DNA of 6,785 nt from a virus (taxonomy: Duplodnaviria; Heunggongvirae; Uroviricota; Caudoviricetes). The stretch is taken from IMG/VR virus record IMGVR_UViG_2563366923_000007; one strand, given 5' to 3'. Every line of letters starts with the position of its first letter. The first letter of the stretch is position 1. A program made the translations under genes and the position numbers. Below, piece by piece: positions 1 through 5,851 of the stretch. A model generated the notes under the pieces. The model saw only the letters and a list, made by a program, of their open reading frames with translations. It made no database searches and was not told the origin of the DNA.

Positions 1-756
1 TTACGGGGTAATGCCAACCGCTGCCGCCACTTTGTCGCCACTAGTGCTTTGTTTTTCGAATTCATCTAAGGCTCTTTCAACATCAGAAAGATACTCTTTG
101 AATGAGTTCAAGATCATGCTTAACGAGCCCCCCATAAATAGGACCTGTTTTCCATCTTTTTTAAAAAAATCAGGATATTTTTCTATAAGTTCAATAATGC
201 TTTTAATATTTTGCCCATCGTTTTCTAAGTATTTTGCATCATTATGCGCACAACTGTTTCTTAATTTTGTTATTTTTTTGATATTCGAATAGTGGGATGT
301 TGACTTCATCCCTATCATTTTTTTGATAAATAGATGGCTCCTCTCAAATCCACTTCCTTTGAGATCTGAAACATTTATAGGAGAATGATGTCTATTAGCA
401 AAGTTGTTACAGAATTTTTCTATTTCGTGTTCAAAAATTCCGAATATAGTTAAGAATACTGACCTGCGGATAATACTTGGGTAGTATTCTAAAAACATTT
501 CATCGAGATCTAGCGATGAGCTGGTGAGTCCCATGTAATGATCAATTGACTGATATACACCATCTTCCGGAGATATTTCAATTATATATTCTTCAGGTCC
601 TTTGTCTTTATATTCTGCTATGCCCTTAGCGATTGATGATTCGCTATGAGTGATTAACGTCTCGATAATATCAAATGTTAAGGAGAAGTCGAATATTGGG
701 AATTGAAACAAAAACTTAACCATGCTTGAACCTTTAAGAATCTGATTTAGTAACAT
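1..756 (-). CDS. Hypothetical AT-rich cargo protein (251 aa) with a HEPN-like R-x4-H motif; candidate RNase-type defence or toxin protein
   Basis: Complete ORF; the stop codon TAA is the reverse complement of 1..3. The longest start (ATG 754..756) overlaps the int stop by 23 nt; an alternative ATG at 721..723 (M12) lies 10 nt after the int stop and has an AAAGG Shine-Dalgarno-like sequence about 7 nt upstream, giving 240 aa. Hand counts of a few 60-nt blocks give about 27-35% G+C versus about 55% in a block of the adjacent int. Motif KLRNSCAHND (aa 165-174) fits the HEPN R-[X]4-6-H signature, with an upstream helix-like segment FGIFEHEIEKF. I recognise no close family. Confidence 0.75.
   Translation of the reverse strand: MLLNQILKGSSMVKFLFQFPIFDFSLTFDIIETLITHSESSIAKGIAEYKDKGPEEYIIEISPEDGVYQSIDHYMGLTSSSLDLDEMFLEYYPSIIRRSVFLTIFGIFEHEIEKFCNNFANRHHSPINVSDLKGSGFERSHLFIKKMIGMKSTSHYSNIKKITKLRNSCAHNDAKYLENDGQNIKSIIELIEKYPDFFKKDGKQVLFMGGSLSMILNSFKEYLSDVERALDEFEKQSTSGDKVAAAVGITP
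19..40. repeat. attL core-like direct repeat (cgctgccgccactttgtcgcca)
   Basis: Position-by-position match to 3931..3952 with a single mismatch (c at 30 versus t at 3942). Flanking bases on both sides differ. The two copies bracket the whole phage-like block. Confidence 0.7.
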
Positions 757-1765
757 CCAAAGTTGCTAGTGGATTGAAACGAAGAGCTGTCTCTAAGTGA
801 TCAGGTGATAGATGAGCATAACGCATAGTCATTTTTATGTCGTGATGTCCGAGGATTTTTTGCAAAGCAAGGATGTTTCCACCCGACATCATGAAATGCG
901 CCGCAAACGTATGACGCAGAACGTGTGTAAGTTGACCGCGAGGGAGCACGATAGACGTTTTTTCCATCACGGATAAAAATTGAAAATAGCAGTCTGTGAA
1001 GAAATTGAACCCATCAAGCGCTATGATCTCTTCATAAAGCTCTTTACTGATAGGGATGCTTCTGTTTTTCTTCCCCTTCGTTCTTACAAAGGTAATTCGG
1101 TATTTGGTCACCTGTGATCGGGTAAGGTTTATTGCTTCTCGCCAGCGTGCGCCTGTGCTTAAGCATATCTTGACTACCAGTGCCAGAATTGGGTCCTGAC
1201 GTTTGCAATCATCCAGCAGTTCAACAATCTGCTCATGGGTAAGCCATGCCATCTCTTTTTCTGCGATGGTGAATTTTCGCATGTTCTCCAGTGGGTTTGG
1301 ATACGACCATTCGCCCAGGCGGGATAGTTCGCTAAAAACACTACTTAGATAGCTTTGCTCCAGGTTAATGGTGACCGGGCTGGCCCCTTTCTTCCATTTC
1401 TCGCTGAAGTAGATCTCACCTGTCAGTCGTTTATCTCGATAATGGGCAAACATTTTAGATGTGAGATCGGTTGCAAGGGGATTGCCCAGAGCGTCAACCA
1501 TCAGCAGCAATTTGTCATAGACATGCTGCCCAGCAGTCAGAGATTTACCATGTAGTTTGAACCATAGCTCAACCACGTCTTTCAGGGTTCGACGATCTAC
1601 TGATTCGCCCAGCCAGGGCTTTGCTTCGGTTTCTTCCATCGTGTGACGCTCAAAAGCCAGTGCTTCGCCTTTGGTGGCGAATTGTTTACGCACACGACGC
1701 CCACTACGTCCGGCGGGGTAACATTCGCAAAGCCATTTTCCTGTGGTGAGTTTTCGTACTGCCAT
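734..1765 (-). CDS. int: Phage tyrosine integrase (P2/186-like site-specific recombinase)
   Basis: Translation contains the tyrosine-recombinase signatures: STGARWREA (box I Arg), HVLRHTFA (H-x-x-R) and GHHDIKMTMRYAHL (catalytic Tyr). Likely start is ATG 1763..1765 (MAVRKLTTGKW..., 343 aa) with GGAGGG 7 nt upstream. The track ORF extends to 1843 but that upstream part has no Shine-Dalgarno sequence. Confidence 0.93.
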   Translation of the reverse strand: MAVRKLTTGKWLCECYPAGRSGRRVRKQFATKGEALAFERHTMEETEAKPWLGESVDRRTLKDVVELWFKLHGKSLTAGQHVYDKLLLMVDALGNPLATDLTSKMFAHYRDKRLTGEIYFSEKWKKGASPVTINLEQSYLSSVFSELSRLGEWSYPNPLENMRKFTIAEKEMAWLTHEQIVELLDDCKRQDPILALVVKICLSTGARWREAINLTRSQVTKYRITFVRTKGKKNRSIPISKELYEEIIALDGFNFFTDCYFQFLSVMEKTSIVLPRGQLTHVLRHTFAAHFMMSGGNILALQKILGHHDIKMTMRYAHLSPDHLETALRFNPLATLDVTKSDS

Positions 1766-1951
1766 AAAAAATGCCCTCCAATAGAGAGCATTTTTACTGT
1801 ATGTATAACCAGTGTCAATGTATGAAATCTTGCGACCATACATCTCACTGAAGCCATAATGAAGTTGGCTATTTTTTGCTATGTGAGTATGTGACTTTTG
1901 CGGTTAGCCTGCGGCTCATTGTTATATTAGGCGCAGATATAAAAGCAAAAA

Positions 1952-2143
1952 TTATCGCGAGTTTTTAGTACAGATTTTTTTTGATTTACTAATAGTTCCA
2001 TCATTGCAAACGAACTTTCCATCGGAGGTACAGTGAGAGACACCTCCCTTTTTCCCAGAACAAGGATAATTTTTAGCATAGGTAGTTAGTGGGTTTAATA
2101 ACAAAGAGCATGATAAAACCACAAAAAATACCTTACCAAGCAT
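1952..2143 (-). CDS. Small secreted Cys-rich, Lys-rich protein (63 aa precursor; predicted signal peptide, mature about 40 aa with 4 Cys)
   Basis: ATG at 2141..2143 is preceded by GGGAGG about 5 nt upstream, directly after the cI stop at 2159..2161, so it is probably co-transcribed with cI and int. N-terminus [23 protein letters not shown] has the n/h/c-region look of an SPase I signal peptide. Mature part [40 protein letters not shown]. Moderately AT-rich. Confidence 0.6.
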
Positions 2144-2158
2144 AGTTTCCTCCCGGTA

Positions 2159-2728
2159 TTACCTAACGTACTTAATTGTTAAACTTATAATTTTTCCAAT
2201 TATTTCAACATCTTCTATCTTGCACTCGAAGGCTCTGTTTCCACCTTCAACGAAGATTCTTCCACCGGGTAAACGAGTAATGTCGCGGATTGTTATTTCG
2301 CCATCAATACTTATTACCCATTTACCATCACGTATATCATCAAATTCTTTATCACAAATAAATTCAGAATTGTTATCTGTGATGACAAAAGGTTTTTTAA
2401 ACGTAGAGGGTAGAAATCCCTTATCAAAAATATAAAAACCGTCTTCACGCAAGGCACCATCAGATAATACATATTTAGCAACTTCCATCGTATTTGTATT
2501 ACCTGAAGTTTGCTTTGAACCATGTCCAGTTGTGAGCCAATTAAGCGAGGTGCCCGTTTCAAGGGCGCACTGGATTACCCATTCTGCTGGGAATGAGTCA
2601 CGCATGTAGCGTGTAGCGAGTGTACTTTTAGAGATTCCTAAATGATCGCACAACGCCTGTCGAGTTTTGAATCCATAAGCTTCTACCATGCGCTCTATAG
2701 CGCCTCGTCCGCCTTTCTCCAAATTCAT
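2159..2728 (-). CDS. cI: Phage 186 CI-like immunity repressor (N-terminal HTH, C-terminal oligomerisation domain)
   Basis: About 190 aa, matching the size of 186 CI. Shows the N-terminal pattern EAYGF...LCDHLGISKSTLATRY and the C-terminal RLPGGRIFVEGG...FEC that I recall for 186 CI-type repressors. Sits divergent to an Apl/Cox-like gene and upstream of int, as in 186. Likely start is ATG 2726..2728 (GGAG 5 nt upstream); the track begins at GTG 2734. Confidence 0.8.
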   Translation of the reverse strand: MNLEKGGRGAIERMVEAYGFKTRQALCDHLGISKSTLATRYMRDSFPAEWVIQCALETGTSLNWLTTGHGSKQTSGNTNTMEVAKYVLSDGALREDGFYIFDKGFLPSTFKKPFVITDNNSEFICDKEFDDIRDGKWVISIDGEITIRDITRLPGGRIFVEGGNRAFECKIEDVEIIGKIISLTIKYVR

Positions 2729-2853: not shown

Positions 2854-3075
2854 ATGAGACCTAACATTTCAATCACTCTTACCACGCCTCATGTGACTAT
2901 TGAACGCTATAGCGAGCTGACAGGACTGTCCATCGATACCATCAATGACATGTTGGCTGATGGACGCCTTATCCGTCACCGTTTGCGCAAAGATAAAAAA
3001 CGCGAAAAAGTGATGATCAACATAGCAGCCATGACCGTTGATGCGCTTTCAGAATGCAATCTAAACCTTAATTAG
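2854..3075 (+). CDS. Apl/Cox-like small DNA-binding protein (excisionase and lytic-switch regulator class), 73 aa
   Basis: First gene of the rightward operon, divergent from cI, which is the position of apl in 186 and cox in P2. GAGGA lies 10 nt upstream of the ATG. HTH-like segment [23 protein letters not shown]. Assignment is by synteny and size, not sequence identity. Confidence 0.55.
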
Positions 3076-3107
3076 TTCGATTCTGAAATACATCAGAGGC
3101 ATTGACC

Positions 3108-3332
3108 ATGTTTGATTACCAAGTTTCCAAACATCCACATTTTGATGAAGCCTGTCGTGCATTTGCACTGCGCCACAATCTGGTGCAACTGGCAGAACGT
3201 GCAGGCATGAATGTGCAGATTCTGCGGAACAAGCTGAACCCAGCTCAGCCTCATTTATTAACCGCACCAGAAATCTGGCTGCTTACCGATCTGACTGAAG
3301 ATTCAACGCTGGTACCTGGTGGGGACGGATGA
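3108..3332 (+). pseudogene. CII-like HTH regulator, N-terminal fragment (about 74 aa) truncated by an internal prophage deletion
   Basis: ATG 3108 with GAGG 8 nt upstream (track starts at TTG 3102). HTH-like segment [20 protein letters not shown]. Lies immediately downstream of apl, as cII does in 186 (169 aa from memory). The ORF ends after ...DSTLVPGGDG, where the frame runs into gpD-like sequence in another frame. Confidence 0.5.
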
Positions 3333-3621
3333 AAACGTGCTGGTACTTAATCGCACTTATGCCAACCGGAGCAACGCCGAACGAGCGGCAAAAATGCAGT
3401 GGGAACGCCTGCAACGCGGCGTTGCGTCATTCTCGCTACAACTGGCGGAAGGGCGGGCAGATCTCTACACGGAAATGCCAGTGAAAGTCAGTGGCTTTAA
3501 ACAGCCGATAGATGATGCGGAATGGACCATTACGACTCTGACACATACTGTCAGCCCGGATAACGGTTTTACAACCAGTATTGAACTCGAAGTGAAGATT
3601 GATGATTTCGAAATGGAATGA
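3319..3621 (+). pseudogene. Phage tail / late-control protein D (gpD family), C-terminal fragment of about 100 aa
   Basis: The frame is open from 3295 after a TGA at 3292..3294 and has no credible start or Shine-Dalgarno sequence. It sits immediately upstream of ogr, as D does in P2/186 (full-length D is about 390 aa). The C-terminal sequence ...WERLQRGVASF...VSGF...WTIT..THT...GFTTSIELEV is consistent with my recollection of the gpD family. Confidence 0.6.
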
Positions 3622-3674: not shown

Positions 3675-3711
3675 TATTGTGAATTTAGCAAAAATGGGGA
3701 GAACTCGAAAA

Positions 3712-3930
3712 ATGATGATTTGCCCACTGTGTGGAAGTGCCGCCCATACTCGCAGCAGTTTTCAGGTATCTTCATTGACCAAAGAGCGTTACAACCAGTG
3801 CCAGAACATTAACTGCAGCCATACTTTTGTTACCCATGAAACTTTTGTTCGTTCGATTGCAACGCCAAAAGAGTCAAATCCGGTTCAGCCGCATCCAATG
3901 AAATCAGGACAGGTGGCGCTCTCTCTTTGA
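3712..3930 (+). CDS. ogr: Ogr/B/Delta-family zinc-finger late-gene transcriptional activator (72 aa)
   Basis: MMICPLCGSAAH...KERYNQCQNINCSHTF... carries the C-x2-C ... C-x4-C zinc-finger spacing and the KERY(H/N)QCQN(V/I)NCS core typical of P2 Ogr. Start ATG 3712 has GGGGAG 10 nt upstream; the track start at GTG 3679 would add 11 residues. The stop TGA at 3928..3930 directly abuts the attR core. Confidence 0.88.
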   Translation: MMICPLCGSAAHTRSSFQVSSLTKERYNQCQNINCSHTFVTHETFVRSIATPKESNPVQPHPMKSGQVALSL

Positions 3931-4004: not shown

Positions 4005-4053
4005 GACAACAAAAAACCCATCAACCTTGAACCGAAATGGCGGGGTTGATGGG
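4005..4053 (-). terminator. Rho-independent terminator downstream of ybjL
   Basis: 10-bp stem CCCATCAACC (4017..4026) pairs with GGTTGATGGG (4044..4053), 17-nt loop. On the minus strand the stem is followed by TTTTTTGTTG (complement of 4007..4016). Lies about 110 nt after the ybjL stop. Confidence 0.55.
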
Positions 4054-4165
4054 CTCCACAAAATGGGGACATCAAAGAAAAGCAGTGGCACTAATTAAGA
4101 CTGATGCCCTGCGGAAAAGTTCTGCGGTTGTGCAAAAAAATTTCATTTTCAGGGCAACTTCAGTT

Positions 4166-5851
4166 TTATCCTAATCCTGGCCATACCATGACGATGATTG
4201 TCCCTGCCAGCGTCAGCAGGACGTTGGCGATTGCATAGGTGCCCGCATAGCCCAGCGCCGGGATGTTACTGCGAGCTGTATCACTGATGATCTCCATTGC
4301 CGGCGCGCAGGTACGTGCGCCCATCATTGCGCCGAACAACAGCGCGCGGTTCATTCGCAATACATAAGCACCGAACAAGAAACAGATAACCACGGGCACC
4401 AGACTGACAATCAATCCGGCAATCAACATCTGACCGCCAATCGCGCCCAGGCCGTTATTAATACCGCTACCGGCGCTCAGACCAACGCCTGCCATAAACA
4501 CCATCAAGCCGAACTCTTTCACCATGCTTAATGCACCCTGCGGAATGTAACCGAAGGTCGGGTGGTTAGCACGCATAAAGCCCAGCATAATTCCGGCGAA
4601 TAACAACCCGGCAGCGTTCCCCATGCCGAAACTGAATGTGCTGAACTGGAAGGTGATCATCCCGATCATCAGCCCAATAACAAAGAAGGCGCAGAATGCC
4701 AGCAGGTCAGTGACCTGGCTGTGAATCGAGATAAAGCCGATGCGATCGGCGATGGTTTTTACGCGGCGGGCATCGCCGCTGACTTGTAAAACGTCACCTT
4801 TGTTAAGCACGACGTTGTCATCTATCGGCATCTCAATCTGGCTACGAATGACGCGGTTAAGGAAGCAACCGTGATCGGTCAACTTCAGTTGTGCGAGACG
4901 TTTACCTACAGCGTTATGGTTTTTAACGACCACTTCTTCAGTGACGATACGCATGTCGAGAAGGTCACGATCGAAAACTTCTTTACCGTTACGGAAGCTG
5001 GGATCGAGTCGGGCATGGGCGTCGGGATAGCCTACCAACGCTATTTCATCGCCCATTTGTAGCACGGCATCACCGTCTGGATTTGCCAGAATCCCGTTAC
5101 GTCGAATACGTTCAATGTAGCAGCCGGTTTGTCGATAAATACCCAGTTCACGCAGATTTTTGCCGTCGGTCCAGGCCACCAGTTCCGGGCCGACGCGATA
5201 GGCGCGGATCACCGGTAAATAAACCTTACGGTTGGCATCAGTGTCCAGGCCACGTTCGCGGGCGATTTGCTGGGCGCTGGTCTGTAAGTCCTGATGCTGC
5301 AATTTCGGCAAGTAACGCGCACCAACAATCAAACTCACCAGACCGATTAAATAGGTTAAGGCATACCCGAGGCTCAGATTATCCAGTGCCAGTGAGAGCT
5401 GCCTGCTTTCCATGCCGGAATGACGCAGTGTATCGCCAGCACCGACCAGAACCGGTGTCGACGTCATAGAGCCTGCTAACATACCGGCCGTCAGGCCAAT
5501 ATCCCAGCCAAACAGCTTACCTAACCCTAAGGCGATCACCAGCGCACTGCCAACCATCACCAGTGCTAACATTAGGTAATTTTTCCCATCGCGAAAAAAA
5601 ATGGAAAAAAAGTTCGGTCCGGCTTCGACCCCGACGCAGAAAATAAACAGCATAAAGCCAAGATTAAGCGCATCGGTGTTAATGCTGAAATGTTGTTGGC
5701 CTAATAACAGCGATACGACTAAAACGCCAATGGAATTACCCAGTTGGATCGAACCAAGTCGTAACTTTCCGAGACATAGCCCAAGCGCGAGGACCACAAA
5801 TAATAACAGAATGTAATTCCCATTTAACAATTCGGCGACGTTTATATTCAC
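4166..5851 (-). CDS. ybjL: Putative transporter YbjL (AAE-family membrane protein with central cytoplasmic domains), 561 aa
   Basis: Full-length translation [29 protein letters not shown]... matches my recollection of E. coli YbjL in length and sequence. Hydrophobic N- and C-terminal halves with a central soluble region. Start is GTG per the track. Confidence 0.88.

Follow-up and report, generated by a model that had tools for sequence, protein, structure and literature searches.

The small open reading frame (ORF) at positions 1952–2143 of the window, i.e. of the whole 6,785-nucleotide stretch of DNA analysed here, encodes a 63-residue pre-protein that, judged by its sequence, belongs with little doubt to the YdcA family. 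The product is very probably a Sec-exported, signal-peptidase-I-processed, disulfide-stapled and strongly cationic periplasmic mini-protein, encoded where a lysogen would make it together with the phage repressor. Sequence and context are best explained if the gene is a moron, a cargo gene inserted in the lysogenic (pL) unit of a P2/186-like prophage. The best explanation overall is that the moron is expressed along with the repressor and that its product docks to the envelope in the periplasm, which we regard as evenly balanced between right and wrong. In kind the gene is ordinary, being a new member of a named, uncharacterised family and common in E. coli, and nothing in the results yet indicates an unusual mechanism.

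The window (6.8 kb) is an E. coli chromosomal segment with a deletion remnant of a P2/186-like prophage, placed between rcdA and rybB/ybjL. The divergent apl/cox-like gene and cI flank the pR/pL switch region in the same layout as in phage 186, and the host genes ybjL, ybjM and grxA come after rybB. The following features are referred to in the text:

1–756, minus strand: HEPN/Abi-like cargo gene, 251 aa.
734–1765, minus strand: tyrosine integrase gene int, 343-aa form (Pfam Int_N and Phage_integrase; RefSeq gene length in LR-27).
1767–1795, minus strand: 12-bp hairpin with U-run before the int ATG at 1765 (inverted repeat I3, RNA fold).
1894–1952, minus strand: long imperfect hairpin beginning at the ORF stop codon, without U-tract (RNA fold).
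1952–2143, minus strand: coding sequence of the YdcA-family pre-protein, 63 aa, stop codon at 1952–1954 (ORF list, NF007463, PHROG 6000).
1955–2074, minus strand: mature part of 40 aa, a basic YdcA domain whose four invariant cysteines are C28, C38, C46 and C58 in precursor numbering.
2075–2143, minus strand: predicted Sec (signal peptidase I) signal peptide, residues 1–23, cleavage after T-Y-A (hydrophobicity profile, homolog alignment, dN/dS).
2149–2154, minus strand: Shine-Dalgarno sequence GGGAGG, 5 nt 5′ of the ATG, read from the sequence.
2159–2728, minus strand: 186-type CI repressor gene cI (Pfam Phage_CI_repr and Phage_CI_C; annotated "phage repressor protein CI").
2854–3075, plus strand: divergent apl/cox-like excisionase-repressor gene (PHROG 575, Cox-like excisionase and repressor, E = 6e-31).
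3102–3621, plus strand: truncated cII joined to the 3′-terminal part of tail gene D (gpD).
3679–3930, plus strand: ogr.
4008–4086, minus strand: host sRNA gene rybB, the only Rfam match in the window and outside the ORF.

Of the location given in the original prediction the coordinates stand and the strand is to be corrected to minus. The start codon lies at position 2143 and the TAA stop codon of cI, the gene immediately upstream in the same orientation, at 2159–2161, leaving 15 nt between them as counted from the sequence, not the 16 nt stated previously. The Shine-Dalgarno sequence, described as strong, is found as GGGAGG, and related elements (AAGGA or GGAG) are present also in the Escherichia, Hafnia and HP2 copies of the gene.

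In the mature region, nine synonymous differences and a single non-synonymous one separate the ORF from the common E. coli allele (omega 0.02). Against the copies from Hafnia, Yersinia, Haemophilus and Moraxella dN of the mature part is 0.03–0.29 with synonymous sites saturated, and purifying selection on this part is strong overall (omega 0.02–0.15). The signal-peptide part, in contrast, evolves close to neutrality (omega, i.e. dN/dS, of 0.5 to above 1), only its hydrophobic layout and the alanine of the cleavage site being kept. Constraint confined to the mature part next to a drifting leader is the pattern expected of a real secreted protein. A chance or decaying, unexpressed ORF might be suspected, as the window is a deletion remnant in which cII has been fused to the 3′ end of gpD and as the gene is often unannotated, e.g. 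in HP2. That origin is practically untenable in view of the low omega of the mature part at saturated synonymous sites, the presence of the gene in intact prophages and in 632 E. coli genomes and a score above the curated cutoff of the family model; on selection and conservation data it can be taken as effectively refuted. The ORF is accordingly a real gene conserved in related elements.

The N-terminus, initially noted as signal-peptide-like, displays the layout of a Sec signal in its hydrophobicity profile, with the n-region MLGK, a 12-residue hydrophobic core (Kyte-Doolittle value above 2.2) and the stretch NPLTTYA, which places Pro at –6, Thr at –3 and Ala at –1 of the predicted cleavage site. 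The Ala at –1 and the arrangement of n-, h- and c-regions are common to at least 90% of the homologs (n = 35) despite the variation of the leader sequence. Processing as a bacterial lipoprotein at Cys12 was considered and rejected: V-L-S-C12 misfits the lipobox [LVI][ASTVI][GAS]C at position –2, the hydrophobic stretch before Cys12 is short with 7 residues, and Cys12 itself lacks conservation. In close relatives with a cysteine at this site the residue at –1 is F, I or V, against the lipobox. The mature peptide of 40 residues (4.27 kDa, pI 9.6) is basic with a net charge of about +7 and contains the four cysteines pointed out before, all of them invariant. The invariant columns among the 35 homologs are P27, C28, S29, K32, G33, G34, C38, F44, C46, G49, S52, S54, K55 and C58, and the same columns are nearly invariant among 149 distant representatives of the family.

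Contrary to the original prediction, in which no homolog was recognised, the ORF has a family. In the profile searches proposed at the time as a check it scores 116.1 bits against the NCBIfam model NF007463 (cutoff 93, residues 5–63 covered) and matches PHROG 6000 with E = 4.6e-34. The score against NF007462, the equivalog model of YdcA from E. coli K-12, is 68 bits and below the 118-bit cutoff; NF007464 was matched as well. These three models (NCBIfam PRK10040 group, NF007462/3/4) and PF27300 constitute the YdcA family. A precomputed Pfam match to PF27300 (YdcA) exists for P0001, which is 97% identical to the ORF product, as for most homologs, and near-identical proteins are named "YdcA family protein". 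A Pfam scan of the ORF with a release older than PF27300 gave a noise match only. An exhaustive profile search yields 461 family clusters (50% identity), of which 270 reach E ≤ 1e-10, and a scan of one genome per species finds members in Gamma-, Beta- and Alphaproteobacteria.

The K-12 paralog YdcA (b1419) is a predicted periplasmic protein of 57 residues and of unknown function (PMC11340327). It shares with the ORF product the Sec signal and a core of about 35 residues with four cysteines, PCSG.KGG(V/I)..C...G.F.CNDG..S.SK..C, and differs from it by belonging to another equivalog and by its chromosomal locus cybB-rydC-ydcA-hokB, whereas the ORF lies in a prophage behind cI. Deletion of ydcA in E. 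coli W causes sensitivity to 300 mM 3-hydroxypropionate, and ydcA expression is reported to be up at pH 5 under YdcI (PMC7642389).

The record of phage 186 annotates pL, cI, int, orf69 and the terminator, in this order, as the lysogenic operon; the cI stop codon overlaps the int start codon by one base and there is no gene between. In the window, cI (2159–2728) and int (734–1765) are separated by the YdcA-like gene together with a spacer of 186 nt, which places the ORF inside the lysogenic (cI–int) transcription unit as had been proposed. The gene is found directly behind cI also in intact prophages of Escherichia, Hafnia and Yersinia, and in the Haemophilus phages HP2/S2 an unannotated ORF of 60 codons (2486–2668) starts with an ATG that shares one base with the cI stop codon. 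This position is kept though cI is only 36–38% and int about 49% identical, and the mature YdcA-like domain is much better conserved than either of them. Conservation above that of repressor and integrase points to a conserved host-side target.

Among 145 phage records with a 186-type cI the gene is present in only three, those of HP2/S2. About 6–8 of the species-level loci (n = 80) lie directly behind a 186-type CI gene, and a few more beside divergent P2-like replication genes. In Moraxella and Acinetobacter siphophages the homolog resides within the head-tail module, and the Moraxella phage copy has a TATAAT-like element upstream. Judged by its gene content, the interval from cI to int is a cargo slot. 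In some prophages the YdcA gene is followed by a KAP NTPase gene that matches the PADLOC candidate system PDC-S20 with 570 bits, a related coliphage carries a different ATPase cargo gene in the slot, and Hafnia and HP2 have unrelated genes of unknown function there. No common partner gene was found after the YdcA-like gene, as HP2 orf1(S), the 347-residue Hafnia protein, the Yersinia proteins and the HEPN-like protein of the window are mutually unrelated; only the downstream neighbours in the Moraxella chromosome and the Moraxella phage are related to each other.

The GC content of the ORF (34.9% against 46.4% for int and about 51% for the host genes) fits acquired cargo. P2 Old and Tin are cytoplasmic proteins, whereas the ORF product is predicted to be secreted and has no known exclusion phenotype. 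With the morons and lysogenic-conversion genes of P2-like phages such as P2 old, tin and fun(Z) (for the moron concept see PMC3594210) the ORF has in common that it is low-GC cargo, absent from 186 and most sequenced relatives, that it sits where the lysogen would express it, and that its family occurs at other positions in unrelated temperate phages. It differs in that its slot is inside the immunity operon between cI and int and in that it appears to use the repressor transcript and not a promoter of its own.

The 15 nt between cI and the ORF leave no promoter between them, and no minus-strand terminator was found in this interval, which makes co-transcription with the repressor the simplest reading and expression of the ORF in the lysogen from the cI transcript plausible. 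Terminator-like hairpins occur downstream of the ORF, where the spacer (1755–1960, minus strand) folds as RNA with a minimum free energy of –55.7 kcal/mol (z = –3.96 versus shuffled sequences). Apart from the imperfect hairpin at the ORF stop codon, this region harbors the hairpin at 1767–1795, which stops 2 nt short of the int ATG and whose 3′ arm includes the Shine-Dalgarno sequence of int (GGAGGG). In the E. coli, Hafnia and Yersinia prophages its structure is kept with different stem sequences, and upon insertion of the KAP NTPase gene a hairpin of this type remains with int. From its position and fold it looks like a terminator or a translational attenuator. A conserved hairpin before int suggests that efficient expression from the cI transcript possibly ends with the ORF, int being attenuated. 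The ORF had been regarded as a mid-operon gene, which holds for its location between cI and int and may not hold for its expression.

Structure prediction, likewise suggested as a check, returns a small β-hairpin domain (AlphaFold2 with a 35-sequence alignment, pLDDT 80.5), for which Dis2/Lpg0823 of Legionella pneumophila is the top match in the PDB. Dis2 is ranked first by Foldseek (TMq 0.62, 36% identity) though with E = 0.52, while no significant match was obtained in the BFVD viral structures. The family profile finds Dis2 as the top PDB match with E = 1.3e-4, and so does the mature peptide alone in phmmer (E = 2.2e-4) with both lobes of Dis2 matched, hence the match is not an artefact of the signal peptide. 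Furthermore, hhalign against an 80-residue Dis2-like fragment, itself with a precomputed PF27300 match, gives P = 2.3e-4. Several chains of plant Pin-II (potato type II) inhibitors appear as weak phmmer matches (E = 0.06–0.95 over about 34 residues), from which a periplasmic protease inhibitor of this kind might be derived. No single match is significant, though, and all belong to one cysteine-rich family and are hence not independent; only three of the four cysteines align, the eight cysteines and the reactive-site loop of the Pin-II repeat are absent from the peptide, and Pin-II is not listed in the Foldseek results for the PDB. A protease inhibitor is highly improbable, and the resemblance is most likely noise of cysteine composition.

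[quoted passage not shown] Its disulfides are seen in the cryo-EM density, and it is described as Legionella-specific and without structural relatives. The Dot/Icm system assembles without it, and no function has been assigned to it (PMC12716638). In the outer-membrane cap (PDB codes 7MUC and 7MUD) each lobe of Dis2 carries, after the Sec signal of the protein, the motif C.SK.GG(I/V)..C...G..VCN(N/D)G..S, which is shared by the ORF product. Dis2 is disulfide-stapled and periplasmic, as is predicted for the ORF product, which may likewise reside under the outer membrane. The ORF product is not an ortholog of Dis2: homology exists at the level of the domain, whereas it has a single lobe with two possible disulfides instead of two lobes with five in a 13-fold machine, and its context is a P2-like prophage in E. 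coli, with no T4BSS genes in the window. Dis2 seems to have arisen by tandem duplication of the YdcA domain, which is widespread, and two to three tandem YdcA domains are present also in some of the 149 distant representatives. Dis2 and YdcA are mentioned together in no paper of the literature searched. As Dis2 has no assigned function, the analogy gives a location for the protein, not an activity.

A second machine is indicated by gene neighbourhood. Of the 80 species-level loci, 19–20 encode a distinct YdcA-domain protein of about 134 residues, comprising a signal peptide, the YdcA domain, a Lys/Ser/Thr-rich linker and a conserved tail (...PTCAPLYMA.KPGYTHLPICSGNQY). In at least 16 of these loci, distributed over many Enterobacterales genera, the gene follows tssF-tssG-tssJ-tssE and precedes a gene with a T5orf172/MUG113 domain. 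This synteny suggests that the protein is probably an accessory of Enterobacterales T6SS clusters, and one YdcA representative is fused to a VasL (T6SS) domain. The remaining YdcA loci are stand-alone genes, some clearly amid housekeeping genes. Enzyme fusions of the YdcA domain in the 149 representatives are confined to secreted nucleases, namely Endonuclease_NS (three cases), SNase and PLDc_2, all above the Pfam cutoffs; weaker fusion signals concern HNH and a PBCV basic-adaptor domain, and also DUF4124.

These contexts bear on the earlier suggestion that the product could be toxin-like or bacteriocin-like. A small, cationic, disulfide-rich and predictedly secreted peptide would suit a toxin, a bacteriocin or an antimicrobial peptide. 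However, an adjacent gene for immunity, modification or dedicated export was found in none of the contexts examined, the leader is an ordinary Sec/SPI signal and not of the double-glycine type, and a Sec signal alone reaches only the periplasm of a Gram-negative cell. In addition the orthologs are single chromosomal genes amid housekeeping genes, and the domain serves as a structural subunit in Dis2 and as the N-terminal module of larger enzymes. The suggestion is not supported, a secreted toxin of any of these kinds being very improbable.

A mechanism consistent with layout and homology can be outlined in four steps. The ORF would be read on the cI transcript of the lysogen, probably constantly, and its strong Shine-Dalgarno sequence would serve its translation, as its layout implies. 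The pre-protein would then be exported by Sec and cut by signal peptidase I after Ala23, in agreement with the sequence rules and the leader layout common to the family. In the periplasm the 40-residue, +7 peptide would fold as a β-hairpin domain held by two disulfides, as argued by the four invariant cysteines and the homologous lobes of Dis2. These three steps taken jointly are very likely on the evidence of sequence. In the fourth step the small cationic peptide may dock, from the periplasm, onto the outer membrane or onto trans-envelope machinery, with precedents in Dis2 of the Dot/Icm cap and probably in the T6SS-cluster accessory protein. The benefit for the lysogen would lie most likely at the envelope, either by blocking incoming injection devices or DNA (superinfection exclusion) or by envelope robustness. 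The occurrence of the YdcA domain in two trans-envelope machines, both around outer-membrane lipoproteins, and N-terminally on secreted nucleases favours an envelope-docking module. Docking and the attendant benefit, drawn by analogy, are a tentative proposal that we hold to be possible and on balance doubtful.

The main biological rival is stress tolerance of the host type, i.e. an envelope or acid-stress fitness factor which adds a copy of a host-type periplasmic protein and has no part in excluding phages. It is suggested by the predicted periplasmic location of the 57-residue K-12 paralog (PMC11340327), by the 3-hydroxypropionate sensitivity of the ydcA deletion and the pH 5 induction via YdcI (PMC7642389), by the many YdcA members amid housekeeping genes and by the lack of a match of the ORF to the PADLOC defence models. 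The ydcA phenotype comes, however, from a single study and is without mechanism, the fixed place of the gene directly behind cI in widely diverged P2-like phages of different hosts speaks for relevance to the phage, and the homologs in T4BSS and T6SS machines are left unexplained. We therefore consider a mere fitness factor rather unlikely.

The main mechanistic rival is a periplasmic nucleic-acid binder, in which the cationic domain would trap or delay incoming DNA during phage superinfection, transformation or conjugation. Both its net charge and the invariant lysines K32 and K55 agree with such an activity, as do the phage copies in Haemophilus, Moraxella and Acinetobacter, genera with natural competence. 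The enzyme fusions, all with secreted nucleases of three unrelated families, are at least as compatible with nucleic-acid binding as with envelope docking. On the other hand, these fusions amount to only about 5 of the 149 representatives, and accessory domains of secreted nucleases can equally be envelope anchors. The contacts of Dis2 in the outer-membrane cap are with protein and not with DNA (PMC12716638), the T6SS has no DNA substrate, and no known DNA-binding fold was recovered. On this evidence a DNA-trapping function is unlikely.

Returning to the envelope-docking reading, superinfection exclusion or lysogenic conversion, as envisaged in the original prediction, is a possibility for the role of the ORF. 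Superinfection exclusion by small envelope proteins of a resident phage that block the entry of other phages is exemplified by T4 Sp and Imm, T5 Llp, phi80 Cor and P22 SieA, among which Llp and Cor are lipoproteins and Imm and SieA membrane proteins. The ORF product, in contrast, is predicted to be a soluble periplasmic peptide, and no similarity to these proteins in sequence or fold was found. Against the docking reading, the ORF matches no PADLOC model, and for host ydcA no effect is evident in the part consulted of a large E. coli phage-resistance screen (PMC7553319). In a more specific version, which is drawn by analogy and quite improbable, the YdcA domain might serve trans-envelope injection machines in general as a periplasmic docking module, and the phage copy, expressed from the immunity operon, might occupy or shield a site under the outer membrane that incoming contractile devices have to cross. 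The free single-lobe copy would then act against the tails of heteroimmune myophages, tailocins or T6SS spikes, or against their DNA or effectors, an idea which we likewise regard as improbable. P2-like phages are themselves contractile injectors.

Three links at the level of the family are new relative to the literature searched, namely those to Dis2, to T6SS synteny and to three families of secreted nucleases, and they yield hypotheses that can be tested for an orphan family with a K-12 y-gene among its members. If it were true that the phage copy blocks the entry of phages, tailocins or T6SS, it would constitute a new exclusion mechanism, and the shielding version, if correct, would represent a class, soluble and periplasmic, that is new to superinfection exclusion or anti-injection protection. 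The system is easy to test, as the peptide has 40 residues and carriers exist among laboratory strains.

The ORF is present in 632 of 5,426 complete E. coli genomes (about 12%), BL21(DE3) among them, where it occupies 873,696–873,887 of NC_012892.2; MG1655 is without the element. In the literature searched, WP_001321204 is mentioned nowhere and no paper links YdcA to a prophage. The UniRef label "Conjugal transfer protein" is taken as an unreliable automatic name, as the plasmid contexts examined have no conjugation genes; the 50-kb Acinetobacter plasmid records may be phage-like elements. The protein is annotated as WP_001321204.1 in LR-27 and in BL21(DE3), in the latter as a hypothetical protein, and the locus tag of the BL21 copy is out of order, which suggests that the gene was absent from the older BL21 annotation.

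The Legionella protein Dis2 (Lpg0823; PDB codes 7MUC and 7MUD, chain AN), which is the top PDB match of the YdcA domain, has been published as a Legionella-specific subunit of the Dot/Icm system without structural relatives. Dis2 seems to have arisen by tandem duplication of the YdcA domain, which is widespread; in a literature search no paper was found in which Dis2 and YdcA are named together.

Within the family the domain is also combined with other modules. In six proteins (P0097, P0162, P0164, P0169, P0177 and P0190) it forms the mature N-terminus and is followed by a secreted nuclease domain, the nucleases belonging to unrelated families, namely SNase, PLDc_2, Endonuclease_NS or, as a weak match, HNH. 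In other YdcA-domain proteins the partner is either a CxC..CTGPRGGxYC module with a weak match to the PBCV basic adaptor domain, or DUF4124.

[quoted passage not shown] It was found at the following loci:

L038, 3926-4327: gene of the ~134-aa YdcA-domain protein, Citrobacter plasmid NZ_CP053574.1
L060, L076-L079, L082-L084, L089-L092, L097, L102, L107-L110, L112 and L120, at ~5000-5400: gene of the ~134-aa YdcA-domain protein

The C-terminus of this protein carries the conserved motif ...PTCAPLYMA.KPGYTHLPICSGNQY, and the protein appears to be a previously undescribed periplasmic component associated with the T6SS.

In Moraxella, the gene following the YdcA-like gene was compared between a chromosomal and a phage locus:

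L032, 3686-4384: gene after the YdcA-like gene, Moraxella bovoculi chromosome
L003, 4126-4578: gene after the YdcA-like gene, Moraxella phage Mcat17

Both products are membrane-anchored at the N-terminus and rich in Glu, Lys and Ala, and they are related to each other (55% identity over 53 aa), a resemblance in sequence which suggests that a two-gene cassette has been swapped between phage and chromosome.

In the window itself, the region between the YdcA-like gene and int contains a putative regulatory element:

1767-1795, minus strand: hairpin and U-run directly upstream of the start codon of int; the 3′ arm of the hairpin contains the int Shine-Dalgarno sequence

The hairpin structure is maintained by compensatory stem changes in prophages of E. 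coli, Hafnia and Yersinia, and upstream of it a conserved block, ACATTGAC.ACTG..T...ATACAGT, extends to ~1830 and includes a promoter-like TTGACA. The hairpin may serve in attenuation of int expression from the immunity transcript, the inferred lysogenic transcript running from cI towards int.

Downstream of int, and overlapping its 3′ end by 23 nt, lies a cargo gene:

1-756, minus strand: 251-aa cargo gene, very AT-rich (34.3% GC)

Its product gives weak HEPN/Abi signals (RiboL-PSP-HEPN, E = 0.005; Abi_2) as well as weak matches to PHROG 2158 "abortive infection" and to PADLOC HEC-01A (E = 0.005). Since the same slot is occupied in other prophages by DUF4917, KAP NTPase or small hypothetical genes, it is likely a defence-gene hotspot. 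Candidate defence cargo is also carried in the interval from cI to int, as follows from the match (570 bits) of a KAP-family NTPase to the PADLOC candidate defence system PDC-S20:

L015-L022, 6198-7529: 443-aa KAP-family NTPase gene inserted after the YdcA-like gene and ahead of int, E. coli prophages carrying the P0010 allele

The right-hand part of the window prophage is defined by two features:

3102-3621, plus strand: truncated cII joined to the end of tail gene D
4008-4086, minus strand: host sRNA gene rybB (Rfam RF00110, 105 bits)

The cII gene is cut off after ~71 codons and fused to the final ~100 codons of tail gene D, with ogr next. Replication, lysis and morphogenesis genes are deleted, and the prophage is therefore a cryptic remnant. 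Because rybB is found at its right end, 78 nt past ogr, the prophage appears to have integrated at or adjoining the rybB 3′ end, between rcdA and ybjL. At the same locus LR-27 and BL21(DE3) have deletion variants that differ, and a retron St85-family effector is retained in the BL21 copy.
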